A stretch of 55,005 nucleotides of DNA from Prorocentrum cordatum (GCA_963575745.1 CAUYUJ010000191.1:62001-117005), one strand, 5' to 3'. Shown: positions 19,523-42,900, counted from the stretch's first letter. The notes: a model not told the origin generated them from the letters alone. A program made the numbers and translations.

Positions 19523-20128
19523 ACCTGCTGATGATGATGATACTGATGGTAATGATGCTGATGCTGATGCTGATGCTGATGCTGATCATTCTGATGATGC
19601 TGATGATGACGAGGATGAGGATAACTATGCTGATGATGGTGATGGTGACGACGAGGATGAGGATTAACATGGTGATGGTAATGATAATGCTGATGCTGAC
19701 GATGATGACGATGCTGATGATGATGCTGATGATGCTGATGAGGATGATGGCGGTGTTGATGATACTGATAATGCTGATTCTGATGCTGATGCTGTTGATG
19801 ATGATGATGATGAAGAAGACGGTGATGTTGATGATGATTCTGCTGATGATGATACGGGTGCTGCTGATGACGATGATGCCGATGATGATGACGATGCTGG
19901 CACGGCTGTAGATGCTGATCATGCTGACGATGTTGGTGATGATGCTGCTGATGATGCTGATGATGCTGACGATGATGGTTATGATGATGCTGATGCTGTT
20001 GTTGCTGCTGATGCTGATGATGGTGATGATTCTGATGCTGATAAGTGTGATGATGGCGATGCTGCTGTTGTCGCTGATGATGATGACGACGGCGACGCCG
20101 ATGCTGGTGCTGCTGATGATGCGGCTGG

Positions 20129-20166
<38 letters not shown>

Positions 20167-20356
20167 CTGATGTTGTTGTTGTTGCCGGCGGCGATGAGGA
20201 CGATGCTGCTGCGGTTGTTGACGATGACGATGATGATGACGACGACGACGATATTGAGTATGCTGATGCTCACGATGATGCTGATGCTGCTCATGCTGCT
20301 GCTACTTATGATGCTGATGATGATATGATGATGATGATCATGATGATGATACTGAT

Positions 20357-20387
<31 letters not shown>

Positions 20388-20453
20388 ATGAGGATGCGGA
20401 TGTTCATGATGCTGCTGCTGATGATGATGATGCTGCTGATGATGATGATGCTC

Positions 20454-20495
<42 letters not shown>

Positions 20496-20815
20496 GTGAT
20501 GATGCGGCTGCTGATGATGATGGTGATGATGATGGTGATGATAGTGATAATGCTGCTGCTGATGCTGATTCTGCTGCTGATGCAGCCGCTGCTGATGATT
20601 CTGATAATGATGCTGCTGCTGATGATGATGGTGGTTGTGATGATGCTGATGATGATGAGGAGGAGGAGGAGGAGGAGGAGGATGCTGCTGATGACGATGA
20701 TGATGCTGCTGATGATGATGATGATGATGATGATGATGAGGAGGAGGAGCAAGATGAGCAGGATGAGGAGTAGGAGGAGTAGGAGGAGGAGGAGGAGGCG
20801 GAGGAGGAGGAGGAT
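19376..20815. repeat. Degenerate (GAT)n microsatellite ending in (GAG)n
   Basis: About 1.4 kb of gat/gct repeats. Confidence 0.95.
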
Positions 20816-20899
20816 GAATAATTCGCAGGCATGTCGTCACACGCGACACCTTTTGTCTGCACTTGTTAATGGGCTCTCGTGAAGCTCCTTTTGACAGTC

Positions 20900-21480
20900 T
20901 TTAGGGCTGTCTTTGGGGACAGTGTTGGGGGTCCCTTGGGGCCATCCTGGGCCCTCTTTGGCCGTCTTGGGGCCCTCTTAGCCTGCCTCGGCGCCGTCGT
21001 GTGATCGTGTTGGCGCCGTCTTGGGCAGTCTAAGGCCTAATGGCCTTTAAGACCATCTTGGGTCCCTCTGGAGGCCCTCCTGGGCCTTGTTGGGGCCGTC
21101 TTTGACGCCTCTTGGGCCATCGTGGGGTCTTCTTGGGCCATCTTGGGGTCGTCTTGGGGTTTCTCGGGCTGCCTTGGGGCCATCTTGAAGGCTTCTTGGG
21201 ACGTCTTGAGCTGACGGAAGCCCGAAACGGAGACACCGTGGCAATCAAGCGCATACAAACGAAACATTGATCTACGTTTCTTCGGACCTGGTTTGGGGTC
21301 ATGTTGTGGCCTTGTTGGGCCCTGTTGGAGGCATCTTGTGCCGCCTTGGGCCATCTTGTGCCGCCTTGGAGACATCTTGGGCCGTCTTCGAGGCATCTTT
21401 GGCCATCTTGGCGGTCTTGGTTGTCTGCTTGGGTCGTTTTCGAAGCTCACGAGAGGGGTGGGGGGTCCCTTAAGAAGATC
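20900..21480. repeat. Low-complexity GGCCRTCTTGG-rich dispersed repeat (related tracts at ~18600-18830 and ~40320-40620)
   Basis: Many imperfect copies of ggccgtcttgg/ggccatcttgg. Confidence 0.7.
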
Positions 21481-22022
21481 AGGGAGTCAGGACATTCCGC
21501 TGGCAATTCTAAGTGATTGGGGTGGGGATTTGCCGTTGGAAGCCAGGGGGTAATGATGTTTTGCTGCAAGTTTTCGGCCGCTGGGGTGAGGTTTTTTGTT
21601 GCCGTTCGAAGCAATGATGCTGAAACCGCTGGGGTGAGAGTAGTGGGGCGAATATATTTTGCTGGCAGTTCGAGATGATCGCAGGGGGCGTGGGGGTAGA
21701 GGGTAATATTTGTGGGCAGTTCCAAACAAGGGTTGATTTCGCTTGTCATTTTCTGCCACGGGTTGAGGATCATGTGCTGGACTTGTATAATGCCCTGGTG
21801 GTCGTATTGCGTTGGCAGTGTTCAGCTGATGGGGTGCGGATATATTACTGGCTGCTTAGACCAGGGGAGACGGAGGGTTAGGAGAAAGGGTGGAACACGA
21901 GGAGGATCGGGAGGAGGAGGACGAGGCGGAGGAGGAGGAGAAGGAGGAGGAGGACCAGTGTAAGCCCAAGACGCATCAACGATGTTTTAATAAACCCTCC
22001 CTCCAGGCTCCATCTTCATAGG

Positions 22023-22219
22023 TGTGAATAAAACCCGTGTAATACCCTCATATATACTCCTTATCCTTACCTCTCCTGCGCCTGGCCGTTTGGGCTCAGG
22101 TATTGGGACAGATCGGTCAGACCTTTGATCGTGCAGGAGGGAAAGACATCCATCTATCCCTCCTTCCCTCTACCAACGGATCAGGGGTTCTGTACCCTTG
22201 TACTTCAACCCCACTCACA
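22023..22219 (+). repeat. 5' LTR
   Basis: tgtgaataaaacccgtgt...ccccactcaca, a direct repeat of 39769-39965. Confidence 0.97.
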
Positions 22220-22231
22220 GGTTATCAGCCC
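22220..22231 (+). promoter_or_regulatory. Primer-binding site of half-tRNA (Hemivirus) type, GGTTATCAGCCC
   Basis: Directly abuts the LTR, lacks the TGG of 3'-end tRNA priming, and is one mismatch from GGTTATGAGCCC (complement of the initiator tRNA-Met anticodon stem-loop). Confidence 0.75.
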
Positions 22232-22283
22232 TTTAAAGCTCACCTTCACCGAACCGCACGTTGTGATCTCGCACGCGGTCTCG

Positions 22284-25200
22284 ATGGAGCCCCTGCGGCG
22301 CATGCGCCGCAAGGGATCCATCGAGGCCTCGCGTCCGAGCTCTCCAACGGCGCGACGGCTCGGTGACGAGTTGGAGAGCCTTAGTGCGGACTGTGTTGGT
22401 GTTCCAGATACCCCCCCCCAGCTCCGACGGACCCGAGGCGCGGCTAGCTGCTGAGCTTCACCGCAACGCCGCCCGCGGGGGGACAGGAGAAGGAGTAGGA
22501 ATAGGAAGGAAGGAGTTTCACACGCCTACCTTCGATCCTCCATCCCCTTCCCCGTCGGGAGCAATCCCAACCGCGTCGGGCGAAAGCCTCACCGGTCATG
22601 ACACTCCAGGGCGCTTTCGCGCTAACCGCCGATGGACCTCAGGTGCCGGTACCCCCAGCCCTGCGACCGTCCCCGCGGCGGAGCACGTAGCCACCTTTGA
22701 GGAACTCAGTAGACCAGTGGCGGCACAGCCGCAGACGCAGTACCCCAAGGTATCATCGGATGAGACACCGCACACATGGTCCGAGTCGCAGCTCGTCCGC
22801 GCGCAACCGCCGTGGAGCCCCGGGCCCATACGGCGAGAGTAGGTCGATCCCGCGTGCTGCCTCTCAGAGGCCATGCGCTCCCCGCGACAGGGGACACAGG
22901 GAAGCTGACGCCCCCCACCTCTCCGTCTCAGACGACCAGCTGGCGGAAACGTCCGCCGCTGGTGAAATAGCTGAGCTCAGAAACCAGGTTGAAACCTTCG
23001 TGTCCAGGCAATACTCTGGACAACTGCAGAGCGTTCAGACGAACGCTGCCGATGCTGCAGCCATACGCCACGATCTGGACGGCGCCGTAGGGATGATTGA
23101 TTCCAGGATCGCCGAATATCGACGTATCATAGGTGAACTGCAGTACCAGGTTGATCGTGAGGTGTCACACTCAGGTGAACGAACGGCGATGGTCGAGAAC
23201 CTGCGCAACTACCTCGCGCAGATGGAGCAACAGCTTGTGCTCGTACGCGACACAGGCGTTTCAGCAGTCAGGATTTTACATGATGGAATCCACGACCAGC
23301 TCCGCAACCGACCAACAACAGCCGAGGCCACCGACCTTGGCGACGTTCAGTCTCAGACCAATGATCTTCGGTCTTATCTAGACCACACTACGGCGACGCT
23401 TCGCAACGAAGCACACACCAACTCGTCGAACCTGATCGGCATGTTGCAGCGTACTGAAAGAGTCATCACTCAAAGGCTTGATGCGACCAACGCTGTCGTG
23501 CAGCCACTCGCTAACCGGATCTCTGACATCGAGCAGTGTTTTCCTGGTGTGCAGGGCGCCCTGGCAGAGTTGCGTGTCGGACGAGCCCAGACTGATCAGC
23601 TGGATTCTCCTCCCACGGTTTACGATTTCGCCCGCCTCACTGACAGGTTGCAGGAGGTTGAGAGGGCGGCGGACCACGCGCAGTTGGAGCTCTCCCAGGT
23701 CATTCGTGAAAGAGATACTGAGAAGGTACGTGTAGAGAGTCACCTCCCACGTCTGGAAAGCGAGCTGGAGGCGCAAAGCGCCCGTCTCCGAGCATGCGAG
23801 CAACGACTTGATCGGTATTCACAACGTTCTCGGGATACTGATGAGTATACACGCCAAAAGGTGGCACGCGTACACGAAGACATGACGAGCTGGACGAATC
23901 AGCTGATCGACCACACCAACGACACCAACCTCCACCTTCGACCTGCAGCCGACCTGCGCAGGCCGACGGCAGCGTCCGCCGAAGCACCACAAGCTTCCGC
24001 AGGACAACAACGACGTACGTCACCAGGAGCAGCCTCCGCGGCAGCTTCTGCACAGACACGCCATGTGTCTCCTGTGCGCACAGAACCAACTACTGACGGT
24101 GCACCGATACCCTCGCAACCATTGTCTGCGATTTCGGTCCATACTACAACTCCTATCAAGGAGTCAGACACCGTCCGAGTCCCTGTCTTGCCTAAGATCA
24201 CGCAGCTGCTCGAGTGGCAGCAACAAGTACGGAAGAACTTTGGGGCCGCCTCAGGGCGACCATCCAAAGCATGCGCTTTCCTATGCGTGGCTGAACTGCC
24301 CGAATGTACATTCGAGGACTTACAAGACAGTGGAGACTTTGAGAGCATCGATTGCAAACTCGCTACCGCTCTGAGCGACATCTTATCCTCGGACTTATGC
24401 TGCCAAATCAGGCTCATCGAAACTAGAGAGCACAAAGCAGGGCGCATGCTCAACGGACGCCAGATTTACTGGCACATCCTACAGTCCTACAAAGTGACAG
24501 AGGTTGACGACGACCTGCACGATTTCGAGCGCCTTAAAGAACTCAGGATGAGAGATGACGATTTGCAACGTTTTATTACTAACTGGGACGCTTTACTCTT
24601 GGAATGCCGAGAAGCACCCGATCCAAAGATCTTGGAATCGCTGTTTCGTACACAGATTCGGAGACATGTATGGATGAAACAAGACATGTACGAGTACCAG
24701 CGCATGAAGATGAGCGACCCGAATCGTGCCTATGGTTGGCTTCGACAGCGTGTCCTAGACATACTGGAGCTTAAACAATTGGAGAAGAATCAAAACAAGT
24801 TACGGTACGAACATGAGACGCGATCTCAAGTCAACGTGTGCGCTGCCTGGAAGAAAGGCAATTGTCGCAATGGTGAACGGTGCAAGGCTTTGCATACATA
24901 TTCCAGGGATTGGAAGAACAACAAATCTTCCAGAACACCAACGGCTGGTGGCAACCCCCGCCGTAGTATGTCCACTCCTGCGACTCGCAAGAAGCCCGCA
25001 TCGAAACCATTTTGCTTCGATTTCGCCAAGCGCAACACATGTACCAGAGGCGATAAGTGTAACTTTCCACACGTCGCACAGTGTAAGGATTTCGCACAGA
25101 ATAAGTACCCAAACGGCGACGCATGCAAATGCGCTCATCTTACACCTGGTGCAAAGACTCCTGAGCGAAGCCCGAGTCGACCACGGACCTCCAGCCAGGA

Positions 25201-26230
25201 TAGCCGTGGCCGATCACCATCCCGCGGATCAGGAAGCCAACGTTCTTCACAACGCGGGGGGTTTCGCTATGCAAGCGACTCGCGCCATGGACGTGACAAC
25301 CGACGCCAATGCGACCGATCTCGTTCAACATCCAGGAGGTCCCCAGACTCTCGCAGTCAATCGAGAAGTCGATGCGACAGATCTTCGAGATCTACCTCCC
25401 GAGGGCGAGACAATCGTGGCGGCGGACGCGGCAGTCCACGCGGCCGTGATAGATCATATGGTAGTGACAAAGGACGTGGCAGACGTTCCCCGAGCCATGG
25501 TTCGTCCCGTGGCTCACCCCACGCCAGAGCACGTTCTCCTGCCAACTTTCGACGTTCACGCCGTTCCGACCGCAGTTACGTCATCCGTGACAAGACCCTC
25601 ATGGCCAACACCAAGGCCACAGCGACATCTACCAACGCACGTCGTCGGATACGCTTCGACATACGTAACGTGGAATACTGTTTACATACCGTATCTGGCA
25701 GGGCCAGATTTGATAAATGGAAAGAGATGCCGAACGAGGGTGACATCGTCAATGTACCAGAACCGTTACCACAACGATGGTGGGATCAAAGTGCGAATGC
25801 TTTACGAGAATGTCAAACAGAGGCACAGCTATGGTACTCTGACCTATATGACTACCGACACAATAAAGAGTCGGTGGCCACACCAGCTGCGATCCGAAAA
25901 TGTGACGGCACTGTTAAGCAGTCATCAAAGACAGCCCAGACGAAGACAACGACAATGCAAGTCGACCCACCACGTTCGACTGCTGCATTGACACGATCCT
26001 GGGTTCTCGACAGTGGTTCTGCTCATCATATGCAGGGAAAACACGAACTAACGCAGACCGAATCGGATCGCATATCTATTCGCGAAGAGCATATTCTGGA
26101 AACCGCCAATGGTGATCGTACTGTCAACGAGCACTACGACATACGGCTACCCGAGGTTGGCTTACACAGTTCAGCCCTTGCCTTGCCAGACTGTCCATCT
26201 TTTCTATCAGTTGGGAAAGATCGAGGTTGA
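22284..26230 (+). pseudogene. Copia Gag (coiled coil, capsid-like region, 3 CCCH fingers, RS-rich region) and aspartic protease
   Basis: Main frame is ORF 22697-26230; the likely ATG at 22284 is reached via frameshifts. Fingers: CAAWKKGNCRNGERCKALH, CFDFAKRNTCTRGDKCNFPH, CKDFAQNKYPNGDACKCAH. Protease: WVLDSGSAHHM, LETANG, FLSVG. Confidence 0.85.
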
Positions 26231-27791
26231 TGGCTTTCGGCAGCTTTGGGATCCTGAGCTGGGCTACTTGCTTCAGGATCCGGGGGGCCAATGGTATAAT
26301 ATTCCAGTCAACAATCGAGTCCCAGAGTTACGACTCGACGACTTGACACTGATACCACCACCACGTTTATGCACTTCGTCCGCACCCCGACGTCGTCAGC
26401 GCAAGCGTTCATCCGCCCGCTGCAACGACATTTGTTGTTGCTGTCAAACTACAGAGCAGTCAACCACTGCAGACGAGCTACGGCCCCACATAGGGACCTG
26501 CCCCAAGAGACCACATGTCGGAGAGGGAGGAGGAGCACGGACCACCACGGTCGCAGAACCTCCCGACACAAACACAGACGAGCCTAACGTGGACACACCC
26601 ACCGACTCGCCTACGTCTCAGACGCAGTGTTCTCCTCCACAATGCGGGGGGCTAGTAGATATAGCTCAAGCAGATAATGACATGCCGACAGAGACACCCA
26701 CGCGAACGCATCGCGACAATGATCGAGTTCTCCCCAACAAACAGAAGAAACCGATCGACCCGATGCATTACATGACTCACAGCCCAAAACACCCTGACTG
26801 TGAGATCTGTTCTCGTACGATGGCGCAGAATGCCCCGTGTAGACGACAGCGCAAACCACATGCGCCGGCAGACCCCACCGACGAGGATAACGCCTACGAG
26901 GCTTTTGTCCCGAAGAAGTTTGGTGAGGCTTTAACTGCCGACCATATCGTGCTGGCCAAAGACGATGCCGCGGACAAACACGGCGACAAGTATGCACTTG
27001 TTCTCCTCGACAGATATACCGGCATCTTCATGGCCTACCCAGCACTACACAAAGACGCAGCTACCACAAAGGCATCCTTTCAACAGTTCATCGCCGCGAA
27101 CGATGAGGTGAAGCATATCTATACAGACAATTCTGGAGAGCTTCAGAAAGCTCGCCGCCAACTGGGATGGAGACACGACACGAGTGCGCCACATCGTCCG
27201 CAAACGAACGGTTTGATTGAGCGCGTCGTCAAAATTGTCATTCTCGGTGCGAGAGCTGTGTTACATATGTCTGGTCTGGGACACGAATGGTGGAAAGAGG
27301 CCATGCAAGCCTTTTGCTGTGGACACAATTTTGTGCATGCATCCACGGGCGTGGCTGTCCTCAATGAAGAGCATGCAGATAAGACAGCTCATGAAATACG
27401 ATTTGGCGAAAGCTTTCCCGGGCACTGCGTGCCATTCGGTGCTCGGATCTTTTGGAAATGCCTCAACCCCGAGATTAACAACGAGACTGCAAAGTTTAAA
27501 GAAAATGCTCGGGAAGGGTTATTCATGGGTTACCACTTACACTCTGGTGGACGATGGTCAGGTGACTACCTTGTCTTGGACGCGGCTACGTGCGCCAAGA
27601 ATCCTGATGGTGAACTGTGTCACGTGCACAGAGTCAAAGACATCATCATCCCTGATGGCAAGTTCACCTACCCAGTGAAAGAAGGTACTCTACGACATCA
27701 TAACCCTGAGGCACACGACGAGGTCAAGGCATCCACATCTCGCCCCTTGGGTGACAAACCGATGCCCGATCCTCCAATTTTCCTACCCTAG
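26109..27791 (+). pseudogene. Copia integrase
   Basis: HHCC HYMTHSPKHPDCEIC; D-D-E in LTADH, YTDNSGE and NGLIER; downstream GLFMGY motif. Frameshifted relative to its neighbours. Confidence 0.92.
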
Positions 27792-28569
27792 AGATTGGGA
27801 TGGCCCATCTATGATGACAACGGAGGACAACGCCGCTGATATCCAAACATCGGCCTCTGAAGATGCTGCACCAGCGCCGGAGCCCGACTACTGGGAACAG
27901 CGCGGATATTGCGTCATCAGACATATTCGTACTCCACGCAAGAAACTGTTCATTCCGACGGACGACGTCATGCACATACCTGTACCTGTTGATCAACTCG
28001 ATGTGACACGAGATTTCAAGACAACTTATATTTTTGAGGGAGAAAGTGACTTTCGAGATGTTTGGGATGGTGTTAGCGCCAACGACCACAGGGAATTAAG
28101 CGAGCCGTGGACAGGCACGATTCAATTCTATGAGCTCCCAAAAATGACGCCAGGCGGCAAAATGGTGGTTCGTGGGCGCGAGACACGTATGCAGACTACT
28201 ACACGTCTTGATCACATTCTTCCCGAGCATTGGAAAACACTCTCTCGTGGACAACAAAAGAAGGAAATCGAGTACGCCAACGACGTTAAACGGGCTCGTG
28301 AGATTCGCGACCGAGCTGCACTAAGAGTGTGGACAAGACAGGACAAACAGGTCAACAGTTTTCGTACCACTACATCCGGCGGACCCACATGGAATACTGT
28401 GGAACGACGGATTACATACGACACTGACAGTGGCGACGTCATCCGCGACGAAAACGTCAAAGGCGTGACAAACAAAGAAATACTGTATGCCAAATTACCT
28501 GGTGGGCCACGTGACATTACTACGGTACTGTACTACCGCCAATCACCACAACAGCGCGAGGGAGAATAA
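27751..28569 (+). pseudogene. Copia IN-RT interdomain region
   Basis: Same frame as the RT ORF at 28585, separated from it by a single TAA (28567-28569). Confidence 0.7.
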
Positions 28570-28584
28570 CGTGCTCTGGTACTT

Positions 28585-31500
28585 GTGGATAGTGAAGGAA
28601 CCGACTTTGGGGCCATGAACCCGCTCATACGCCAGTTCACCCAGTCGGTAGTAATACCAACTATGCCACGTGAGACCACCTACACGCCGGCACACAGGGA
28701 TAAAATACCTCATTCCTCATGGTCACGCCCGGCACTAGTTGCCAGAAACCTGAGTAAGAAAGAAGTTGCCGCAGAACCACGTGCACAAGAAGCCCTCCGA
28801 AAAGAATGCGAGATATTGGAAAAGAAACAAACGTGGATGTTGGAGACAGTTGCAGAAAAAACTGATATTGAGTCACGAGCGATCCGCACTGGGACGGAAG
28901 TTCATTTCTTCAATATCTTGGAGCTATCTTCAGTCAAACACGAGGAACTTCCACCTGATCTACGTAAATTCAAGGGCAGAGTGGTGGTTCAGGGCAATAC
29001 AGGCAAAGATGCAACTGGTTTGGCCGCCATATTCGCCGACGCCGCTTCCAGCGCTTCGTATATTGAGGCTTCCAAACTTTGCGATGCTACTGCATTATTG
29101 CCACAATATGCGGGAGAGCAAAGTGATGCACCTGGAGCCTACACGCAGGCATTATTATACGGCGACGGACGAATCGATCCAGTTGATACTTGGATTACCA
29201 TACCTAAATGGCGACAACCGACATCATGGTCAAAATGCAAGAATCCAGTGTGCCGATTACGATTGGCACTATACGGACACCCTCTCGCATGTGTCTTTTG
29301 GGAACGAAAATGCCGTACATGCTTAGAAAGCGTTGGTTTCGAGCCTATTTCAGGATGGGAATGTGTATGGAGGCACAACAAACTGGGACTGATACTTTCA
29401 GTATATGTGGACGACTTTAAATTAGCCGGCCCAGCTCGCAATCTACAGACTGGCTGGGATTATATTCGCAAAAGCGGTATTGACTTGGATCCACCTACTC
29501 CATACTCACAATATCTGGGTTGTGGACAACAAGCATATGATGTACCGCAGACTATCTTCGACAAAAGAATGTCCACCATACGCGCTATGTTGCCCGTACA
29601 CAATGAGAGAGATTACAATGCGGCTAAACAGGTTCGTGGAATTCGACATGATATGCTTGGTTTTACCGATCAGTGCATTGAACGATACCTGGAATGCGCC
29701 TCCAAGCGCGCCCAGGGACCAGGGTCACGTCGGAAACGATCCGACTCGCCGAGGACTTCGCGATCCAAATCGCCCGCATCCTCCGGGTCGGTCGCCAGAC
29801 CTACTAGTGTGCTCAACGCACGGCCACGATCATCCAGCCCAGCAAAATCGGTCGACACGACATCTACCACGACAGATCCCATACCCGTCACATACGATGA
29901 CCTACCTGACGCCGAGACCCCTGGCATCGAGGACACCTCCTTCACTGATTCCGACTATTCCGACGAGGGCATCCTTGGCCAGGACGCGGCGAGTGTACTA
30001 ATGAAGATCCTATACCTGGCACGTTGCTGTCGTTTTGATCTTCTACATCCAGTATGTATGCTGGCCAGAGAAATTACCAAATGGAATACTGCGTGTGATG
30101 AACGTCTACATCGATTGATATGCTACATCAAAACGACGCGTACACATTGTCTGCACGGATGGATAGGTGATTCGTCAGACAAGTTATCCATCATGCTCTT
30201 TACTGACGCCTCGTTCGCTGATTGCATTACATCATCAAAATCCACTACCGGCGTTTTTGCCGCACTTGTTGGACCCAACGCGTTCTTTCCAGTCAACGCT
30301 GTATGTAAGAAACAAACGGTTGTCTCACATTTATCTACTGAATCCGAGATCGTTGCTCTTGATTCAGCACTACGACTGGAAGGGTTACCACTACTCTCAT
30401 TCTGGGAAGCCGTGGTGGGAGTTGCCAAAACATGCAAAGAGAAGAATGCATGCCTGAGCTGCCATAGACACGTCGACCCGGCGATGTGTCCTACATTGGC
30501 AGCCAAAAAGAAGCGTAAACCATCGCCTCGCAAGGCACCCCCTACACGGGGATCTTCTCCTAGCCGTAGGCAACTACCGCTAAATACGGAATTACCTACG
30601 CCTCCAAAGAGACGTGCAATATCCCATGAGGGTGCAGTATTGCACGTGGATCCAGAACCGGCTCAAGAGATCAGTTATCCCAAAGTGCGTCTTATCGTCC
30701 TGGATGATAACCAGGCCGTGATCAAAATTGTCCAAAAAGGACTTGCTCCAGCACTTCGTCATCTTCATCGTACTCATCGTATCAACCTGGATTGGATATG
30801 CGAGACGTGCCAACTCGAACATATCGAGCTCAAATACGTAGGTACAAAGGAGCAGATCGCAGATATGATGACCAAACATTTCGAGACGAAGAAAGCAGAC
30901 CTTTGGAAGGATCTCTTGGAACACTCGCTCATATTTCCCGCTACTCCGGTACAGTGTCCTCCAAAGAAACCCTGGAAACCACTGAGAGGGCCTCGGGGGC
31001 CCGATGGTTTACCTCGCGTTGCGGAACCTCCCAAACTGGATGGATGCCCGGAAGTATGCAAAATATTACTTACAGAAAAAGAAAGATGGGGCGAAGTAGG
31101 ATCAGAATGTGGATTCCGATGCGTTGGACAAGCCAATCACGAGGGAATCTGCGCATGCATGTACCACATTGGCGTACCAGCCGCAGCTATTGCGTCGCGC
31201 ACACCTCGTTCACGCGCACGTTCCCCGCGCGGTAGACATCCCCGCCATCCTCCCTCGCCTCCGCAAGATGCAGAGAGATTTAGGACATTACTTATACGTT
31301 CATGCCGCAGCAATTTTACGACTCGAGCTACAAGGCTCACAGGCATCCTGTTCGCCGCGTGCGAGGCGAAAATAAGTGAGATCGGTTCTAATCCCGACGC
31401 CCCCATCCACGAGATGGATCAGGCACAGCCGCTCAACCTCATCGGCTGGCCCATCGGCTACGACACGGAGTGCGACCCGAACGCCAAGGACGACGACCGC

Positions 31501-33135
31501 GTGGGCTTCACGTACCACGCTCAAACTGGCCGTTCTCGTGATCCTGATGATGGTTACATATACATACATCAACGGCGTGCTGATCGCAGTGGAGAGTTCG
31601 ATCTCCGCGTGCCCGACGAATCCTCTATTCGAGAAATTGCCCGCTTTGCGTCCACCGACGTTAAGAGCTGGATCAATGACACGAGAGGATCAGTCGGCGG
31701 CGACGCCAACTATGACTACAGCACATTTACAGCTACACCGTGGCTATCATTCATGCGTGCTATGTGTATTCTTTTCAGTCTGTTCAATCGTAATCCGTCT
31801 GTACAAGAAAGTGTTCGTGGCTTACATGATCATTTGAACGCGGTGATCCCAGGAACGCACCGCAAGTGCCCACCAGAGAACTTTACGACGATGATATTGA
31901 AGACGGAGTGGCTGATGATTCGCAACGGTTGGTCCAATATTGGCAGTGCAGTACTGGGACAATATGCCGAGGACAGCGTTCAGGATACACAAATATACTA
32001 TTCAAATGGTCTTTGTGCACCATCCGATGTATACAGCAATGGATTGGTAACTCCATGCTATGCTCCTAAACATGATCGTACAACGGCCAAGTTACCTACA
32101 CGCCCACCTGGCGTTGCCAGGACATCGGATACATCTGGACACATCGGCCGCATTGTTGAGGATAATTTGGTCACCAACATGAGAGCATTTTCCGACCTTA
32201 ACCAAACAAGCAAATTTCGCCGCAAGCTCAGTGCATGGCTGACGGCGCGCGGAGGGTTTGGAGGTATCGGATCATACTCCAAGACGGTGGCAACACCATC
32301 CGATCATCCAGAAGGCTGGGTGGCAATATCAGATCATGACGGGGATATGACAAGTACCTATCGTTGGCAACCATACAACGAGGGCGACGACTTCTTCGGC
32401 GAAGCCGCTGACCAGATCGGGCAGATCGACCCTGGTCTTACCCCTGGCCCTGATGTTGACCCATTCGAGCTGGACCAATCAAAGTACAGCGCTTTCTGTG
32501 GTGGTCGTTTGGTTTCTACTCTTCTTTCAGATAATGGGTGGTGTTCCCTCATGCAAGAAGACTTGGGACTACTCTTGCATCATGCATTTGGTCCATCAGG
32601 GCACGCGTACAAATGGACCAACTTATACACCGACTCAACGTGGATTATGCAGGCCAAGAACAAGGCCAAGAGTGCAAAACAGAAGAAGTACCCAACTTAC
32701 GGCATCGACGAGCTCAACACTGCACAGAAGCGAGAAGAACTCGCCAAGGCATCAAACGTTGCTCTCGTACCGCTATTTATGCCGTGCCTCGACCGCGCGG
32801 AATACATGGGCGGCGCTACTCTCGAGCAATTCGCGACCATTATCCGCGACGGCATCATGATGTGGGCATTCTCCTTTGGCAATTATAAAGAATGGTTCAG
32901 ACAGAACGACACGCCGATTGGCCAAGATTGCGTTCGATTGCCAGAGGCTGGTGGAGACACCCGCTATGGTATGGAGGAACTACTTAAGCCGCGTTTCGAG
33001 ACACAGGAAACCCGTACCACAGCTATTCTCAACAACCAGTATGAGTGCACTCTCGAGCAGCGCAACATGATCAGGATGATCCGCGAAGCCGGGTGCCTCA
33101 TGTTCCACAGCGACAATGCTTTCATCAAAAAGTGA
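28585..33135 (+). pseudogene. Copia reverse transcriptase + RNase H, continuing in frame into the accessory extension
   Basis: RT: FKGRVVVQG, SDAPGAYTQA, LRLALYGHP, VYVDDF. RNase H: FTDASFAD, STESEIVA, LDDNQAVI, QIADMMTK (~30860). About 750 further codons follow with no stop. Confidence 0.93.
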
Positions 33136-33660
33136 TGCGAATTAAACGAGACAATCTGGGCCTACTGGGCCAACGATTTTCCATCATATGTGAAACAAAG
33201 ACATTATTGCTGGGGCCTCAATGCTATGGTGGTATGGAGCGCGAATGACATCGCATGCGCCAACCACGGACAGAGCACCGTGGACATGCGTCGACATCAG
33301 AATCGTGCACCTACCGACGTATATGAGCTCCAGAAAATGGAATGTGAGGATGGCGTCCCGACGCTCATGCCAGTACACGTACGCGTGGACGTATCACGTT
33401 TTGTCGATGTGATGCAGTACTTCCGCTGTCCCACAGTCATGGGGCCTGGCAAAGCAGCACAATGGGGCGTACATCCGAACTTTGATCACCGCACGAACGA
33501 CCTGATCAATATTATGCAAAATCGTGGTATCACTGTTCTTCCATCAGATCACTGGGTGGAAACATACGATAGGATTATTCCGCAGGCTTGGCATGCAAAA
33601 CAGAACAACCATAACATGGCGATGTTTACAACACAGTTCTGCGACGCAGTATGCTATCGT
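32615..33660 (+). pseudogene. SGNH/GDSL hydrolase-like domain in the copia extension
   Basis: Ordered motifs LYTDS (block I, ~32623), MGGATL (block II, ~32806), VVWSANDI (block III, ~33229) and WH (block V-like, ~33589), all in one frame across a single TGA at 33133. Recognised by eye only. Confidence 0.45.
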
Positions 33661-33767
33661 AACTTCTGCGCTTTGATTCAATCACTGCCCTCTCAACCAT
33701 ATCCATTCAGGGCGCCATTACTGATTCCTGTCACGGATGAGCAGGCCCACCACAGGCCAAAGAGATC

Positions 33768-34973
33768 ATGGCTGCTCTCGATTTCAGAGAAGAGATGACA
33801 AACGAATGGAAAAGAGATCTCAGCCTCACGACGTTGATGACACAGACGGCAAGCGAAATGGCTCAGTGTGCGTGGATGGCATCCTGTGCCGATGGTACGT
33901 TGCTGGCATCACTGCCTGCTGACGCAGGCGACACAACGGAACCTATTCCAGGAATGCCGAAACGGACACCAGCACCTGACCCTAGCGAGCCAGACGAAGC
34001 CATCCCTGAAAATGATCCATGGGGCGTGGCATACGACGACTTGTTCCAGTACCTCATGCTGTTGATCAACGACTACCCTGGGGCTTGGGCATCCTGGCAT
34101 TCAGTCGAGAAACAAGAGCTCCTCCATCCCAAGATCATCAAAACGGTTGAAGATGCACATGCAGTTACTTGGGTTGTGTTCGAGCATTTTTTACAACAGA
34201 TTGCTGACTTGGATGGAGATGATAACGCGACCAAATCACGACTCACCGTGGAAAACAACAGGTTGACTTCTCCTTGCATCGGCCCTGCTGCCGAGAACGA
34301 GCGGAACATCATAGCATGCAAAGCATTCTTCAGGCAGAATGCACTAGATCGCGTGGCATTGGGCCATGATCCTGATGTTCCGACATCCGTGTGGCGTGCA
34401 GCGGCTGATACAGAACAGCCAGCTCCGCCAGGTCCATTGCCTGATCCACTGCAACCTGGACCGCAATCGATAGACGTGCCACAGCCATCGATTCCTGGAC
34501 CAACAGCAGACCAGCAGCCAGCAGATCAGCTCCCAAAGGCTGAGGCGGTACCGATCCCTGACGACGGCACTGACCTAGAGGCCATGGAGCTGGAGGCAAC
34601 TCCTGCCGAAGAGGAATCCTCTCCACATGAGATGAATTTATTATCATGGCAGGACAGCTGCGAGCGTTCCATGTACGAGGACATCAGCCAGGTCGGGATA
34701 TTCGATAACGCATGCACTATTCGAGAGTGGAAGCTGCAAGCAGGCATCAAGGATGACCATCCGTACGTATGTCCAATGCTGAGGGGTACACGCGCGACCA
34801 ATGGATTCGCCTGCCTGGAAAACGAAGATTGGTACGAGCAACTGTTGCACGATGATTGTGTGATTGCTCACGCGCCTGATATCGCACAGTCTGGTTGCTT
34901 TCCAGAATGGAAGTGGATATCGTTACCAAATTACGACGATGTACGTTATGGTCCCGAGTTAATTGAAGAATAA
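33768..34973 (+). pseudogene. Copia extension, unknown domain plus Pro/acidic linker
   Basis: 401-aa open frame, in frame with the downstream Tpt1-like segment across one TAA. Confidence 0.65.
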
Positions 34974-34994
34974 TGGCTGGGAACAAACAAATAC

Positions 34995-35820
34995 ATGAGC
35001 AAAGACATCGCGACCATGTTACGCCACGAGATTCACTACAAAAAGTTCTGGATCAATCAATTTCACGATAGACGTATCAACATTTGGGAGAAAACAACAG
35101 ATCGTGAATGGAAGATTCCAAGCATTTGGACATCCTTTCAGGAAATGGTTCAATGGAAATTCAAAGATCGCAAAGATAAGCACAATGGACTGTCCATGGA
35201 CGCTGCAGTGTCACACTTCAAGAAAGATGGTGCAAATCATGGATATGCCGATTGGAACGATTACTACCCGATCTTCATCATTCGTGCGTTCCAGAAACAT
35301 ATTGATCCGCAGAAAAATAGAATTGAGATATACGCCAAACCAATCCCCGAGGGAGATGACCCCAGCTGTTTCGATTGGAACAGCGTCATTGCCATTCGAT
35401 GTGTTGGAGGTCGCAGTTGTGTCAACCCACTTTCCAAACCATGGAATATGGGATGGGAGAGCCTGCGATGGACAGATGTGAAATACCTCCACCACGGCAC
35501 AGCACTCCGTGCTTGGCGCAACATCTTGAAGACAGGGGCCATTCCAGGCTACAGCGGCCCATCTTCTCAGAGAGACAAGCATCACAAACCATCGCAGCGC
35601 TCGGAGGCATTCTTCAGTTCCAGCACATATTTAGACAATGTCCAGAAGAATCCCCACACCTCAGTAGAGTCATATAAGTTCAATAACTACAAGAACGAGG
35701 TCGAGCTAGTGATCAATATGGAGATCGCCACAAAAGCAGGTTGCAGATTTTGGCTGGGCGCTCAATGAGCTATCATGACAGAGGACGTGGTTCCAGCTGC
35801 GGCAGTTATTGCAATTCGCC
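34995..35820 (+). pseudogene. Tpt1/KptA-like RNA 2'-phosphotransferase (ART-fold) domain in the copia extension
   Basis: SKDIATMLRH (SKxxxxxLRH), KNRIE (KxRF), IRCVGGRS (IRAxQGHS), YLHHGT...AWRNILKTG (HGT...W..I...GL), RSEAFFS (RxHVHxS), LVINMEIATKAGCRFWLGAQ*AIMTEDVVP (IDxxxAxxxGxxFxxSxNGVILT..VP). One in-frame TGA at 35766. Confidence 0.8.
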
Positions 35821-38800
35821 GCCTCAAGCCACATCACATGCACGGCCAGCAGATATGGCCAGGCGGCGCCACATGGGATTACCCGCCATTGGCCGCGAGA
35901 CCGCCATTGAGCAAGTACGAGATTTGCGCCTACCTCCCTGGAGAGTTCATCGAAGACCCTCCTGGGATTGCACCTGCTGACACGGATCAGAACATGGAGC
36001 AGCCAAGGACAACGTCAGCATCAGCAACTTCGGCTCAGCTGGGGGCAACCCCTGTCGGCCGTATATCTGCAGCCGATGCCTTGGATGAGCAAATGGTCCG
36101 TGCTATGATTCGGGACACCAATCACAAAGCAGATGATAAAGAGTGGTTAATTGCCCTGTCATGCTGCCGAGAGGCTCTTCGACCTATTACATCAACGATT
36201 ACACAAAAAGATTGGGATCGTCGCCCTGCATTTAATGATGTTCGCATGGGGGACTTCATCATCATTAAGAATGGGGGATCTATCAAATGTTATCATTATG
36301 ACAATCACTACCCCAAGGGCAATCACAATACCAAGATCCCCATGACTAAGGGCCACATATATGGTCCAATCATTCATTTCGGCGTCTTTGACAAGTTCTT
36401 CGCGGTACAGATACCTATTCTCAACTACGGTTTACGATGGGTAAACATATGGTACAATGACAAAAGCATGCCTCTCAAGGGCGTTGTCTTTGCATTGCCA
36501 ATTCGTATCGACGAACATGCCATTGACCCGACATATATGGATACTGTCCTGGAGGGACCATCTTCATGCCGTGACAAAATACTTCAGCACAAACTGATGG
36601 CAGTTTGCCATATCTTGGTATGCCGAGCATTTATAGACCACGCATTCCACGTACACCGACCAGACGGCCCGCTCTTCGGACACCCGATCCCGAAGAGCTG
36701 GTGGCCACACCTGCTGAAGATACCGCTCCTACGGACGATGGACCTCATCAAACTGTAGGCTCATCTGATGAACCTTTGGTTGCCGTTATCGCGGACATAT
36801 CGAGCATATCGCTCACCGCTGAAGAAAAAGCAGCAAACGACAATATGAGAGCAGATCTATCAGCAGAAATCCAAGCAGATGAGCACGTTGATGCGAGCAT
36901 ACTCGACAACATTATTGACCCGCCAGAAGACTTCCTCAACCACCCAGATTACGACCCAGACGAGGATTCAAGGTGGATTAAACAGTCAGATGGCCGCCGC
37001 ATATAGCGCTGGACGTCGGAGTTGTTGGTGGATTCGCCTATGATAAAGATGAAACAAATCATCGAGATACACAGTGGCGCGGACAGAATTGTAATGGACA
37101 AAACACAATCGCACTCACGATTTGAGATTCAATTCGGATCGAAAGCATGGAATGCAGAGTCATACCATTCGAATTATGATCATACCCACAAATGGGCACG
37201 TGACTTGCCAATTTGCAGTGCAGACCACTTTTTCAAAAAGTTGGTGCGCAACCTGGACCCAGAGACCATCGAGGAGTCGACTACAGGCGTCTTTCAATGG
37301 ATCTCCAAAGTATATCAAACCCTTTTGATGGACAGTATTGCGGAGCTTCGTGACTTCACAAAATATGCCATCCATCAGAAACATCCTGCACTCCAAACGT
37401 TGCGTGATCTATTTAAACATTGTATCGACACATTCGGTAATCCAGACTTCCCCGTATGGAAGGAGCTGGTGGAAACACCTGCCGCGCCGCGTGATCACGG
37501 CGCGGAGCAGGATATTCCCCAGGACCCAGGCAGTGTTGCATCCGCAGCTCCTGATCAAGAAACCATGGTACGTATCATAGCCGAGCAGACGGGAGTCAAA
37601 CGCGAGGAGGGCGATAACGAGTCCGCCTTGCAGGAGAAGGCTCGCCGTCTTCGTACTGAAAACATATGCCATGGTGGTACTGAGGATGCGGACAACGACA
37701 CGACAGAGTACATAGGACTGCCAGGGGAAAGATTGTCTAGGATCGAGATCGAGGGATTGAGTAGATCAATCGCTTCCCGGCCGGACGCCGAGATCAACCG
37801 CGAAGCCATTGATCAGATCGGCCGTAGTCTTGCTCGTGGTCAGGATACTCGCTGGGGATCTCGTGAGCACCTCACGACGGAGGGAGCCCCAGAAACGATC
37901 CTGCATGATATCGCGCTATGTCAGAATTGCGGTCGAGACTTATCCCTTGGGATCGTCACAGGTGATGGTACCCTTTGTGACATCTTTTGGCAGTACACCG
38001 TGGCCGTAGGTGCTACGGGTAAGAGTGCCGCCGTCCAGAGCGACCTAGCATACCTCCAGAAGCTGACCAACTGGATCAAGATGACGCTCTCCCAGGATGA
38101 CATCACGAGGTACATGAGAGACGGAGCGCAAGTCATTATGACGGGCGCGCGATCACACCCAGGCAATGAGAAAGATTCGCTGAGGAGTATGGCTAATGTG
38201 TCTAGGAAGAGGTATCAGAAGTGGATCGAATCTGGTAGCCCTCCTGCACACGAGTGCAGACTGATGGGCGAGGCTAGTGACGACAGACCTCTGTACTACC
38301 CATATGCCAATCTCGTTCAGCGCTTTCTCAACGATTTGAAGTTCCACCACCAAAGGACAGGCGCTCGCGTGAACGTGGGCAAGAAGGCCTGGAGCGTGGA
38401 CGACATGCGTGATGCATGTGCGATCCTCGATGTCAGCATCAGGACAGGACAAGCTGGTCGGAAGAAATGGTGGCTGAACGAGGGCCGACTCGACAGGCAA
38501 ACGCGGCAGGCTCGCGGACTTGTCACGATTGCCCTCCCTAGAAGGGATGGCACCCGTGAGAAAGTCACGCAGCGCAAGCTTGCTGCGATTGCTAACGAAT
38601 TGTTGGGCTCCCTCGATCCGTCGCATACCGGCCAGAGGGGGGTTGATTCAGGGATGAGAACCGATCCGATCGAACCTGATACACACTCCCATCAGTCTGA
38701 GGATGCCATGGAGCCGCGCCATCCGCCGCCGCCGCCGCGCCCTGCCCCTGGCGATGCTGCACAGTCCAGCGCCTCTGGCGCGACGGACCACATGCCCGCG

Positions 38801-39085
38801 GGGCCACGCGCCAAGCGAGCGCGTACCACAGATTACGCCGCATACTGGCGCGACGACCTTGAGGGCAGTCATTGGGGCCTCAGGTATTGGAGCTACTACA
38901 TCAACTGTTGGATCTACATCGCGATGAACAACGATGAGTTCGTATACATCCACGACATCCAGTACAATGATTGGTTTCGTCACTGGATCCCGAGGACATA
39001 TTGGGAGACATTCACGACGAGCTACGTGACGTACAATGGCCAGAGGATGTGGGACCGCAGGTTCTACAAGAACGGCAGCGCGTAG
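35821..39085 (+). pseudogene. Copia extension, C-terminal ~1,090 aa of unknown function
   Basis: ORFs 35775-36758, 36605-37006 and 37022-39085 are linked by one frameshift and one in-frame TAG. Includes CQNC and a Trp/Tyr-rich tail. Confidence 0.65.
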
Positions 39086-39750
39086 TGAGTCGGCCGCAAG
39101 GCCCACCGCTCAAAGGCTTGAGCTTCATTATAATCAAAGTTCGCCTTGAGCGGTGGCTATTCCATACTTCTAGGCCACTTCATTATACAACACAAGTGGC
39201 CACACAAACAAACATCTTTTGCGATGGCCGAGGCAGCCTCCTAAGGAGCAATGCCAACGGGAGTCGCCAAATAGAATTTATCTTCATGCAGCTTTCGTGT
39301 TTGTCAACACGACATTTCGTCTGGCCAGACATTTGCTTTTACATATAGTTGCGTTCCGTAGCGCGATCGTGTTCATCAACGCGATCTCAGCGTGCATATT
39401 CATTACAACATAATCACATTGCGTTGAGAATAATCTGACAGCTGGTGGCAACACCTGCCTCGCAAAAGCGAGGCAGATTACAAGTTGCTTTATTGCTCAG
39501 ATCTTCTTTCTCCGCCCACCCTTGTCTCATTCTTCTCCGCCCTCGAGTGCCGAAGCGTTTTGGGGGGCGCGCCGAGGGGGCGCCAAAGTGTGTTTAGCCA
39601 AGAAATGGGGACCCAGGGTGTTCCTTCTTACTTCACTTTGCAGCTGGGGCTATACTGACTTTAAGCTCAGCTGCCTGCAGACTTAAGGATTAAAGGAGTA
39701 AAAGGGTGACGGATTCTTTTCCTCTGTTCCCGAGTCCTACCCTCGCGGGC

Positions 39751-39768
39751 GGGATTCGGGACGGGGTG
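39751..39768 (+). promoter_or_regulatory. Polypurine-tract-like sequence
   Basis: gggattcgggacggggtg immediately 5' of the 3' LTR. Confidence 0.55.
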
Positions 39769-39965
39769 TGTGAATAGAACCTGTGTAATACCCTCATATA
39801 TACTCCTTATCCTTACCTCTCCTGCGCCTGGCCGTTTGGGCTCAGGTATTGGGACAGATCGATCAGACCTTTGATCGTGCAGGAGGGAAAGGCATCCATC
39901 TATCCCTCCTTCCCTCTACCAGCGGATCAGGGGTTCTGTGCCCTTGTACTTCAACCCCACTCACA
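39769..39965 (+). repeat. 3' LTR
   Basis: tgtgaatagaacctgtgt...ccccactcaca, followed by the TSD atagg. Confidence 0.97.
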
Positions 39966-42900
39966 ATAGGTCCCTACAATAATTATTGTCATTCTGAGAA
40001 GTGACCCTCTAGAAGATAACCGTCTGACAATTCTCAGTCTTGCCAGCACTCGATTTCTGGAATTTCAATGGGACTTCAACGCCTCGGATCAAAATGATTG
40101 CTGCGCCCTGACAGTTCTGAAGTGATCCTGATCACCATGCCTGGGACTTCAACGCCGAGGATAAACGTGACTGCTGCGTCCCGACAATCTTCAATCGTGC
40201 CAGAACGCCGTTTCTGGGACTTCTTCAACCATCTGAATTTTCAAATGCTGTAAAATGTCTACACGAATGTGCGCGGCGCAATTGCGAGAACCACATTTTG
40301 AAAAAGGAACGTGCCGCTTCGGCCGTCTTGGGCTGTATGAAGGCGGCAACCGCGAGAACACGAACATCATGTTTTCTTTATCGAGTGAGTCAATGAACGT
40401 TGCATTCTGAGGCCTTCTTGGGGCGTCTCGAGGTAGTCTTCGGCCGTCTTGGGGCCACTGTGGGCTTCTGTTTCGTCGTCTTCAAACCATGTTCAGCCGT
40501 CCTGGAGACATCTTAGCGCATCTGGAAGCCATCAGGGCTCTTATGGACTCACTTGCTCTTGAACACATTTTGGAGCCCTCCTGAGCTGGCTGTGGGCCCC
40601 CAAAGGCAGAGGGACTCGGCCGTCCAGGGGTCCTCCAGGGGTCGTTTAGGGTCGTCTGTGCTCCCCCCCCCTCAAGCGGGCGCTGTAGGGTCCAGGGGGG
40701 GGGTCTGGGGGGGTCAGGTGGGACGGGGGCGAGGACCGGGATAAATCGCTCCAGAGCGTTCCAGAGCGCTCTCAGAGCGGTCCAGAGCGCTCTGGAACGG
40801 CCCCAGCGCCCGATACAGTTCAGCATGTTCCAGAACTGCCGGACCCCGGAGTTCCCTGATCTGCCTGGGTCTTGTCCCTGCCCTGGGATCGTCTTAGGAG
40901 GGGTCGGGAGTAGCTCACACGCCTGGAGGCCCCCAAGTGCTCCCGCTTTGCCTGCGCCCGTTCGCTTCGCACAGCGGTCGCGGCCGAGTCAGGCAGAGCG
41001 CTGTGGTCGCTTCCCCCCCTCCCCCTCCACAAACAGAACCGCCTGGCTCTTCTGCACATGGGCCAGCTTCTCCTCCTCCTCCTCCTCCTCCTCCTCCTCC
41101 TCCTCCTCCTCCTCCTCTTCCTCCTTCTTGATAGTGTGCTAGAAGCCGGGCACGGCGCCGGCCAGGATGTTGTGGCACGGCTGGAGGACGCTCAGCTGGT
41201 ACCCGAGGATCGGGGAGGACAGACGATGGAGAGACGCCCACGAGCGGCCTGCTCCACGAGCGGTCGGTCCTCCCGCCTGCCTCTGCTCGAGCCCCGCCGC
41301 CCGCGCTCCGCCAGCGCCCCGCCGGGCAGCCCCTGGCCGCCACGGCCCGCGCTCGTGATCGCGCGCGCACGAGCGGCGGCCCGCGCCCCTGGCGCGCCGC
41401 GGCCAGGCGGCGCCGCTTGCGGCGAGTGCTTCGGGGGAGTCGAAGAAGACAGATCGCCATGCCCATCGGTCGCTGAGAGTGGGCATTTCTGGCTTCCCGG
41501 ATCCCAATCTACTCTGGGCGCCTTCCTTGTTCAAAAGGGTCGGTTTTTTTTGCTCCTTTCCTCCCCTTCAGGGGGCGGGCGGAAGCCCAATCTTCTTCCG
41601 ACGCCTTCCTACTTCATGTTTCTACCCACTTCTTCCGACCGATGGGTAAACATAAACATGCGGCGCTCCGCGCGGATTCCTGGTGCCCTTGGCGCCGCCC
41701 CTGGCGCGCTCCGCGCGCCGGGGAGGGGGGGGCCAGCGCGGATCCAAGAAGTCCGCGTGGAGCGCCAAAAATTTACGTTTATGCCGTGCTTTCCTCTTCT
41801 AGGGAGGGGGAGGCTCGCCAGCGGCTCGCGTTTCCGGCCGACAGCTCGCGCTCCTGCTGGGGCGTCGGTCACCCCTGGGGCGTCGGCCGACCCTGCGGGT
41901 CCAGTCGCTGCTGGGGTGTCGAACACCCCGGGTGGGGTTCACTTGGCTGCAGGCATCCTTCAAAGTTTTGACCCCCCGCCAGGTTTTCAGGGACTTGACC
42001 TGCAGGGCTTTGCTAGGGCTCACGCGTGGACGTCTGTAGTTTCGGCCGATCCTCGTCTACGTCGTCGTTCTGGCGGTTTTGGGCCGCTGCTGGAGGTTCT
42101 CCTGGCTGCGGGCGCGGCTCGAAAGGCTGGCCAGGATGCACCTCCAGAGGCGCCCGCGGGGACAGGTCTGGGGCGGAGGCCTGGGTCGGGAGCGGCGCGA
42201 GGAGGGGAGACCCTCGAAGGGGGCAGGACTTCTGCTGTTCGGCTGGTTTCCGCGCCCGTGCTCTCGCGCCCACGGGCCTCACGCCCTGAGCCTGGCTCCC
42301 CCCGCTCCCTGGGGCCCCTGCCCCCCTGTGCCCTCCCTCCCGCCTTGCGCTCTCTCGCCCCCTGTGCCCGCTTCGTCTGCCCCATGCAGCCCAGTCCAAG
42401 CTTGACCGCGACGGGTCCGCTCCGCATCGGCCACGCGCAGAGGGGGGGCAGAGGGGGAGGGGGAAGGCTCTGCTCAGCAGGACCCCTGCTTCTTAGAAGG
42501 CGCGGGCCTTCTGTTGAGACGTGAGGCTGGCGCCTTCTGAGAAGCAGCCTCCCTTGGAGGAGCCTTCCCCCCTCCCTCTGCCCCCTCTTCTGCGCGCTGC
42601 CGTTTCAAAGTCGAAGAGAGGTTCCGCATGCGCTCGGCCTCCTCGCTGGGCGGTCGCACTCGCTTTGCGGACCCCCTGGTGGCCTCGAGCGGCATCTCGG
42701 AGGCGCGCCGCCCCTGCTCGATCCGGGGCTGCTGCTTGGCCACGAGGCCCGTTGGAGGACCCCCCCGGCGGCTTGTGAGCAGGCCTGTGCCTTCGCAGAG
42801 GGCGGTGACGGGGCTGGGCCTGGACCGCCGGCGTCTGGAACCACAGTCAGCACGGCAGTTTTTCCTCCATCCTGCGGCATGTTGTGTGTGGTGCTTCGGG

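Follow-up and report, generated by a model that had tools for sequence, protein, structure and literature searches.

We analysed a 55,005-nt stretch of Prorocentrum cordatum DNA (GCA_963575745.1, CAUYUJ010000191.1:62001-117005; this whole stretch is called the window, and positions are counted from its first letter). It was found to hold one complete long terminal repeat (LTR) retrotransposon of 17,943 bp at 22023-39965, whose reading frame runs on past ribonuclease H (RNase H) for about 2,700 codons. An initial annotation of the window had described a giant 17.9-kb copia element in which ~2,700 amino acids (aa) are fused in frame after RNase H. Both parts of this description held: the element has an LTR pair, a target-site duplication (TSD) and the domain order protease (PR), integrase (INT), reverse transcriptase (RT), RNase H, and four relatives cross the junction between RNase H and the extension. 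We consider it very probable that the extension is a genuine in-frame feature of the family, seen here in a decayed copia copy. The nearest named relatives of the element are proteins of the Pyramimonas sp. set.

Boundaries and core coding region

The limits of the element were determined by direct repeats, alignment and blastn (Table 1). Because an LTR pair with TG..CA ends is flanked by ATAGG on both outer sides, these limits define a single complete element, and the whole 17.9 kb is one copia-type element. The two LTRs are identical at 191 of 197 positions (96.95%, blastn), and the six differences between them are all transitions (Kimura two-parameter distance 0.031). No internal LTR pair, pair of terminal inverted repeats (TIRs) or other direct repeat was found within the element by the repeat scan and self-blastn, and the only inverted repeat detected between 22000 and 40000 was a palindrome (22274-22331). 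By self-blastn the element also showed no similarity to the remainder of the window. No paralogy was detected among its 13 protein pieces, and internal duplication was thereby rejected. The G+C content was 0.49-0.58 within the element and reached 0.73 outside.

The domains follow the order PR-INT-RT-RNase H, with the integrase before RT and all parts on the + strand, and the element is therefore Ty1/copia-like. Its opening open reading frames (ORFs) were mapped at 22032-22454 (frame 2), 22267-22842 (frame 0) and 22691-26230 (frame 1). Gag comprises ~1,100 aa, and every core part is inflated, the domains being set apart by Arg/Ser-rich stretches. The CCCH fingers of the Gag-like region (~24839-25140) were matched by zf-CCCH of Pfam (E 1.4e-6; 28.5 bits, above the cut-off of 20.5), and the printed translation places the Arg/Ser-rich stretch of this region at ~25160-25570. 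N-terminal to the fingers a helical region of ~450 aa was observed, with weak SMC-like coiled-coil matches. The Pfam search of the element gave no protease match. The RT catalytic loop was located at 29404-29415 and the acidic residues of RNase H near 30205, 30340 and 30703, and a typical copia C-terminal RNase H end was recognized at ~30830-30939. Two scores tell against the assignment: rve (PF00665; 26975-27200, E 3.6e-6, 27.6 bits) and RVT_2 (PF07727; ~29215-29525, E 3.4e-5, 24.0 bits) fell under their cut-offs of 32.6 and 31.6, respectively. Such scores, significant and yet below the cut-off, are those of a divergent member in a decayed copy.

The extension beyond RNase H

RNase H ends at ~30939, and the same ORF (28570-33135) runs ~730 codons further without a stop, as had been claimed when RNase H was said to read straight into the extension. 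The annotated chain of ORFs, joined by in-frame stops and overlapping frame changes, was likewise reproduced by our ORF list and translations. Stops were found at 28567-28569 (TAA), 33133-33135 (TGA), 34971-34973 (TAA), 35766-35768 (TGA) and 37004-37006 (TAG), with the next ORF in the same frame each time, and the overlapping frame changes at 22267-22454, 22691-22842, 26052-26230, 27679-27791, 33741-33798 and 36575-36758. Five of the frameshift positions were as annotated; the last had been put at ~36740 and lies at ~36590-36593 according to the protein fragment P0098 (89-93% identity). As far as 39085, the path through the extension includes four internal stops and two frameshifts.

Only five stops, the terminal one included, occur in the 2,717 codons of the path at 30931-39085, compared with ~121 expected from base composition, and the three opposite-strand frames over the extension hold 87-105 stops each. 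When codon usage was scored with gag, INT and RT as the only training set, the frame of the path came out best in each of 27 windows (300 nt each) from 30901 to 38701. The weakest of these (-0.01) fell at the 33.6-kb frame switch, and beyond 39.0 kb no frame was preferred.

An exhaustive HMMER search over 1.84 billion representatives was made with 30931-33132 as the query, and 72 homologues were obtained at E<=1e-3, 46 at <=1e-10 and 8 at <=1e-30; most homologues of the first piece (ext1) are fragments of 60-130 aa, as expected for a repeat in short contigs. By tblastn, four fragments (P0059, P0020, P0021 and P0062; 41-89% identity) were found to begin at 30865-30868, still within the C-terminus of RNase H, and to extend without a change of frame into the Cys/His-rich first part of the extension, P0059 spanning the junction at 41%. 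Because four diverged fragments cross the junction in frame, RNase H must have been fused with the extension long ago, and this copy is not alone in having the fusion. Farther along, P0001 (749 aa, 37% identity) covers 31432-33606, and the Tpt1-like ORF described below has two homologues, P0074 (68% identity) and P0075 (62%). For the last piece (ext7), 26 homologues at E<=1e-3 and 47-92% identity cover 37049-38641, 24 of which are named EukProt Pyramimonas sp. Taken over the whole extension, the homologues share 27-92% identity with it.

At the DNA level, contigs of four public runs (X1, X2, X3 and X6) covered 30 of 30 bins of the element, 12,376 contigs being placed in X1. Since thousands of contig pieces cover all bins, with a likeness to the element that varies from >99% to <90%, the family is large, diversified and present in high copy number. 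One contig of run X2 was seen to join both LTRs (22183 / 39931), skipping 17,747 bases, in the manner of a solo LTR.

About 2,400 aa of the extension gave no match in Pfam, NCBIfam, PHROGs, PADLOC, PDB sequences or Atlas. By piece, ext1 and ext2 matched nothing in the first five of these collections, ext3 had no family or PDB match, and ext7 had neither of the two, with no usable Atlas match for its residues 1-560. Besides Tpt1, the sole match of the extension in Pfam was DUF1040 (0.066), and the best PDB-sequence match had an E value of 0.09. An AlphaFold2 model of ext1, made from 17 sequences (17 of the 73 available alignment rows), reached a predicted local distance difference test score (pLDDT) of 42.5 and was too poor for use. 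An env-like reading of the extension was also considered and rejected: a transmembrane-like segment (19-aa window, mean hydropathy >1.5) was present in none of the seven extension pieces, and the extension is in frame with RNase H.

Wherever relatives allowed a disruption to be checked, it proved to be decay private to this copy. A sense residue stands in place of TGA 33133 in each of the four fragments that span it (W in P0001, P0058 and P0064; Y in P0066), at TAG 37004 both spanning fragments (P0098 and P0101) have Y, and the frameshift at ~36590-36593 is read through by P0098, the one fragment available there. The relatives thus do not share the internal stops at 33133 and 37004. Among the best 40 of 2,690 substitutions and 12 of 78 indels in the contigs, other copies were found with +CA behind 22770, joining frames 0 and 1, and with +TT behind 26218, joining the PR and INT frames; the depth with the latter insertion was 423 of 704 in X1, 111.5 of 204 in X2, 47.4 of 50.4 in X3 and 25 of 44 in X6. 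Together, five of five checkable disruptions (22770, 26218, 33133, ~36590 and 37004) are not common to the relatives. The five stops and six frame changes in 16.8 kb would fit neutral decay at the LTR divergence of ~3% (0.031).

Whether an intact copy encodes everything in one frame is a narrower question. The single ~5,600-aa polyprotein proposed in the initial annotation gains from the five private disruptions, and falls short in that no relative spans ~33780, 34971, 35766, 22420, 27780 or 28567. We put intact copies with one unbroken ORF to 39085 at slightly better than an even chance. Several observations have to be set against such a polyprotein. In the core, no protein fragment spans 22420, 27780 or 28567; in the extension, none of the fragments found spans 33741-33798, TAA 34971 or TGA 35766. 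A Met lies seven codons past TAA 34971, precisely at the onset of the Tpt1-like similarity. All protein relatives are fragments, the longest of 749 aa, with no intact full-length copy among them; no ext1 relative of 836-2,662 aa was found, and no DNA locus of a relative was found in JGI metagenome contigs, IMG/VR or GTDB genome contigs.

Because three junctions have no spanning relative, the extension may be divided into two or three ORFs in intact copies. The extension would then still belong to the element, and the intact copies would encode two or more ORFs and no single 5,600-aa polyprotein; for example, pol with ext1-ext3 might end at TAA 34971, and an ORF with the Tpt1-like region and ext5-ext7 might be expressed via splicing, reinitiation or readthrough. 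This arrangement, which departs from our preferred explanation solely on the one-ORF question, appears rather unlikely to us, though it has to be taken seriously. The unspanned junctions and the Met at the start of the Tpt1-like similarity would suit it, and the extra ORFs of copia elements such as Sireviruses are usually separate. However, the checkable disruptions are private to this copy, the frames adjoin without an intergenic spacer, and TGA 35766 is probably a mutation and not a boundary, because it lies inside the segment aligning with the KptA C-terminus.

A foreign origin of 31-39 kb, as a nested transposon or a captured host gene of this copy or of a very young subfamily, was also weighed. 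The summed contig depth of 31.6-39.2 kb relative to 22.1-31.6 kb was 0.43 in X1, 0.25 in X2, 0.50 in X3 and 0.47 in X6, in a comparison where contig depth does not equal copy number; this counts against an extension common to the whole family, many members of which may be without it or more diverged there. The drop in depth is located past the Cys/His module (31045-31167), not at the RNase H end, and none of the 15 contig joints listed (of 42) skips the extension. The Cys/His module was observed twice in tandem in P0053 and P0056, which look unrelated and have no obvious RNase H ahead of it, and it may be a mobile zinc-binding module. The lower depth, weak as a measure, would agree with a foreign insert, as would these tandem modules and the lack of a retroelement family signal in the extension. 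On the other side, no nested element with its own termini was found in 31-39 kb, there being no LTRs, TIRs or repeats inside the element; the junction is in frame and crossed by relatives down to 41% identity (P0059); the homologues at 27-92% identity mark the extension as old and diversified, at a depth of the same order as the core; and its strand and codon usage are those of the core. A foreign insert is therefore already largely refuted and, in our view, very improbable.

It is hardly credible that composition or a chimeric assembly join produced the long frames after RNase H where there is no real gene: the G+C-rich window can yield long chance ORFs, the 1,437 codons without a family at 10779-15089 being a candidate, but the deficit of stops (5 against ~121, with 87-105 per opposite-strand frame), some hundred independent protein homologues from other data sets, the LTR pair and TSD enclosing the whole element and the contigs of four runs in every bin all contradict it.

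Table 1. Positions of the element's features in the window, with the basis of each assignment
Feature	Position	Strand	Basis
TSD, left copy, ATAGG	22018-22022	+	read directly; identical 5 bases at 39966-39970
5' LTR, 197 bp, TG..CA ends	22023-22219	+	direct repeat, alignment, blastn
Primer-binding-site-like stretch, directly 3' of the 5' LTR	22220-22231	+	position only
Start of coding path, candidate ATG at 22284; two frame changes in this copy	22284-22842	+	ORF map
Gag-like region, oversized, with a long N-terminal part (helical), three zinc fingers of CCCH type and an Arg/Ser-rich stretch	22691-26008	+	
Aspartic protease active-site triplet	26009-26017	+	read from translation
Integrase: HHCC part 26766-26840; DDE core Asp 26940, Asp 27126, Glu 27219	26766-27221	+	
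RT and RNase H	29200-30939	+	Pfam RVT_2; motifs read from translation
First part of the extension (frame of RNase H), with a Pro-rich linker, a Cys/His-rich module at 31045-31167 and an Arg/Ser-rich linker at ~31195-31260	30940-31260	+	
ext1 and ext2, conserved orphan domain(s); TGA 33133-33135 inside	31429-33795	+	
ext3, acidic Pro-rich orphan part, frame 2; entry at frame change 33741-33798, end at TAA 34971-34973	33741-34970	+	ORF map, codon usage
Tpt1/KptA-like region (candidate); TGA 35766-35768 within last aligned segment	34995-35810	+	Pfam PF01885 below cut-off
ext5 and ext6, orphan parts; frame change near 36590-36593, TAG 37004-37006 at end	35811-37003	+	
ext7, last 692 codons; terminal TAG 39083-39085; C-terminal ~90 aa aromatic-rich	37007-39085	+	
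Purine-rich, polypurine-tract-like stretch, directly 5' of the 3' LTR	39747-39766	+	position and composition only
3' LTR, 197 bp	39769-39965	+	direct repeat, alignment, blastn
TSD, right copy, ATAGG	39966-39970	+	read directly

The Tpt1/KptA-like region and the proposed role of the extension

Only ~270 aa of the extension (34995-35810) carry any family signal; they are a candidate for the fold of an NAD+-dependent nucleic-acid phosphotransferase/ADP-ribosyltransferase. Pfam PF01885, the family of the Tpt1/KptA RNA 2'-phosphotransferases, matched the ORF 34974-35765 with E 0.003-0.004 and 17.8-18.0 bits, and the match spans profile positions 73-176 of 177 when the stop is read as X. An hhalign comparison of the window ORF and its two homologues with seven bacterial/archaeal KptA sequences (E. 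coli kptA and six annotated plasmid homologues) gave a probability of 56.3% and an E value of 1.1e-4 over 89 columns, which belong to the nicotinamide adenine dinucleotide (NAD+) lobe only. BLASTP against E. coli KptA gave E 0.003 over 26 aa around His-Gly-Thr, and in the Atlas protein-language-model search all 30 of 30 neighbours had PF01885, with a top score of 0.90. Of the catalytic tetrad, the Arg-His pair was recognized at 35022-35027, and the His-Gly-Thr segment could also be identified; the fourth residue is ambiguous owing to an insertion, in an alignment that is uncertain at such divergence.

Other results argued against the assignment. The Pfam score lies well under the cut-off of 26, and the Atlas query had a recognition value of 1974 against 2300, which makes that match a weak one. 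The profile search returned no Tpt1 among PDB sequences, the fragments P0074 and P0075 on their own gave no Pfam match, and NCBIfam gave none. The AlphaFold2 model of the Tpt1-like ORF, made from three sequences, had a mean pLDDT of 31.7 and was unusable for recognizing the two lobes of the Tpt1 fold, a winged-helix RNA lobe and an ADP-ribosyltransferase NAD+ lobe. Moreover, the third tetrad Arg (R69 of KptA, invariant in the seven KptA sequences) faces a Cys in the MAFFT alignment, and this is also the case in P0074 and P0075.

Judging from sequence similarity, we regard a Tpt1/KptA fold of region 34995-35810 as fairly likely, and catalytic activity of the region as considerably less so. In a published study of Tpt1 (PMC6333775), enzyme lacking the third Arg is reported to be ~210-fold slower in the second chemical step, compared with only ~3-fold in the first. 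Because this Arg is apparently missing here, one may speculate that the domain, if active, would stop at the ADP-ribosylated nucleic-acid phosphate. Of the large enzymatic cargo postulated in the initial annotation, one candidate region of ~270 aa, scoring below the cut-off, was thus recovered, and the other ~2,400 aa are without any match.

The findings would be best explained if a marine eukaryote harboured a giant LTR retrotransposon of Ty1/copia type in high copy number, the present element being an old copy that is now dead. In this lineage the gag-pol frame continues past RNase H into ~2,700 conserved codons that are transposed along with the rest of the element. The extension would be translated with Pol and might be separated from it by the element's protease at the Arg/Ser- or Pro-rich linkers, which are putative cleavage sites. 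Its domains, predicted to be soluble, could serve the element's own cycle in RNA/cDNA end handling, in targeting or in countering host control, and the Tpt1/KptA-like domain might use NAD+ to attach ADP-ribose to an RNA or DNA phosphate.

The strongest form of this proposal is put forward tentatively, and we doubt that all of its parts will hold. It states that, with ~5,600 aa in a single frame, the polyprotein of a Ty1/copia lineage in prasinophyte-like marine algae would exceed every other LTR-retrotransposon polyprotein seen so far. The module of ~2,700 aa after RNase H would be ancient and selected, and would include an enzyme, derived from Tpt1/KptA, by which a phosphate is ADP-ribosylated on RNA/cDNA of the element itself or on host nucleic acid. 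The further domains without known relatives would provide new retroelement functions such as targeting, RNA/cDNA end protection or countering of silencing.

The coding content of LTR retrotransposons is considered to be under tight constraint, and the fixation of additional protein domains to be rare (PMC9289625). Here, a copia lineage would triple its polyprotein, keep ~2,700 codons across copies at 27-40% identity and still attain a high copy number. Such an element would push packaging, translation and processing beyond their known range, and it would offer several orphan domains whose function is linked with retrotransposition. If the Tpt1/KptA-like domain were active, it would link NAD+-dependent modification of nucleic-acid phosphate to the retroelement life cycle.

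Surroundings of the element and comparison with known systems

No tRNA gene was found in the window, and a scan of 12 flanking ORFs gave no Pfam family. On the + strand a stop-free stretch of 1,437 codons (10779-15089) lies in DNA of 60-73% G+C and matched no Pfam family; either a genuine gene or an ORF arising by chance in G+C-rich sequence could account for it. Degenerate repeats of trinucleotide type (GAT/GAG-rich, period 9-15) occupy 1-1000, 4000-6000, 19400-20900, 50000-51000 and 53000-55005. These GAT/GAG-rich stretches have a G-over-C skew of up to 0.78 and low G+C, and alternate with blocks of 60-73% G+C.

A periodic repeat of 10-11 bp flanks the element on both sides (18630-18800, 20925-21415 and 40400-40540). 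A GAG-rich direct repeat of 118 nt (83% identity) likewise lies outside the element on either side, at 21899-22016 and 43534-43651, and is probably low-complexity similarity. Downstream, a motif of ~40 nt occurs three times (40263-40304, 43887-43926 and 43961-44000; 63-90% identity). It is very abundant in the public runs, where hundreds of contigs end or restart at 40263/40304, and its joints go back 41-42 nt with differing spacers of 21-40 nt between copies; this resembles arrays in which a conserved unit alternates with spacers that vary.

In open-access papers and bioRxiv, no description of a giant copia element with such an extension was found, nor any work linking a copia LTR retrotransposon with Tpt1 or, in a relevant way, a retrotransposon with KptA; the Cymbomonas genome paper contains no occurrence of 'copia'. 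Among known systems, the element resembles Ty1/copia (Pseudoviridae, the green-algal lineages included) in its TG..CA LTRs, its 5-bp TSD, PR-INT-RT-RNase H in one frame, its rve/RVT_2 similarity and its C-terminal RNase H end. Copia elements usually measure 5-7 kb and encode 1,300-1,800 aa, with a Gag that normally has CCHC knuckles, whereas this element measures 17.9 kb and ~5,600 codons, its pol runs ~2,700 codons past RNase H, and its Gag of ~1,100 aa has three CCCH fingers instead. With Sireviruses and other copia elements that have an env-like ORF it shares coding sequence downstream of pol; in contrast to theirs, the extension is in frame with RNase H, has no transmembrane-like segment and is several times longer. 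Terminons/Athena of rotifers and, in Ty3/gypsy, Ogre and Burro are oversized retroelements with extra coding capacity as well, but they belong to other RT lineages and are large because of separate ORFs, long LTRs or non-coding parts, not through a copia pol extended in frame past RNase H.

The similarity of the candidate domain to Tpt1/KptA/TRPT1 is collinear and covers the NAD+ lobe together with the segment ahead of it. The domain differs from them by an insertion of ~80 aa between the first two conserved segments and by its place within a retrotransposon polyprotein, Tpt1/KptA being a free enzyme of ~180-230 aa. A passage of PMC9289625 describes orchid Ty3/gypsy elements that acquired an m6A RNA demethylase (ALKB) domain, and calls such fixation rare. 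So far as that passage goes, they are alike in being an LTR retrotransposon lineage with an added nucleic-acid-modifying domain, for which the Tpt1-like region is the candidate here. They differ in superfamily and domain, theirs being a single domain of a known family, compared with ~2,700 aa here, of which ~270 aa carry a weak signal.

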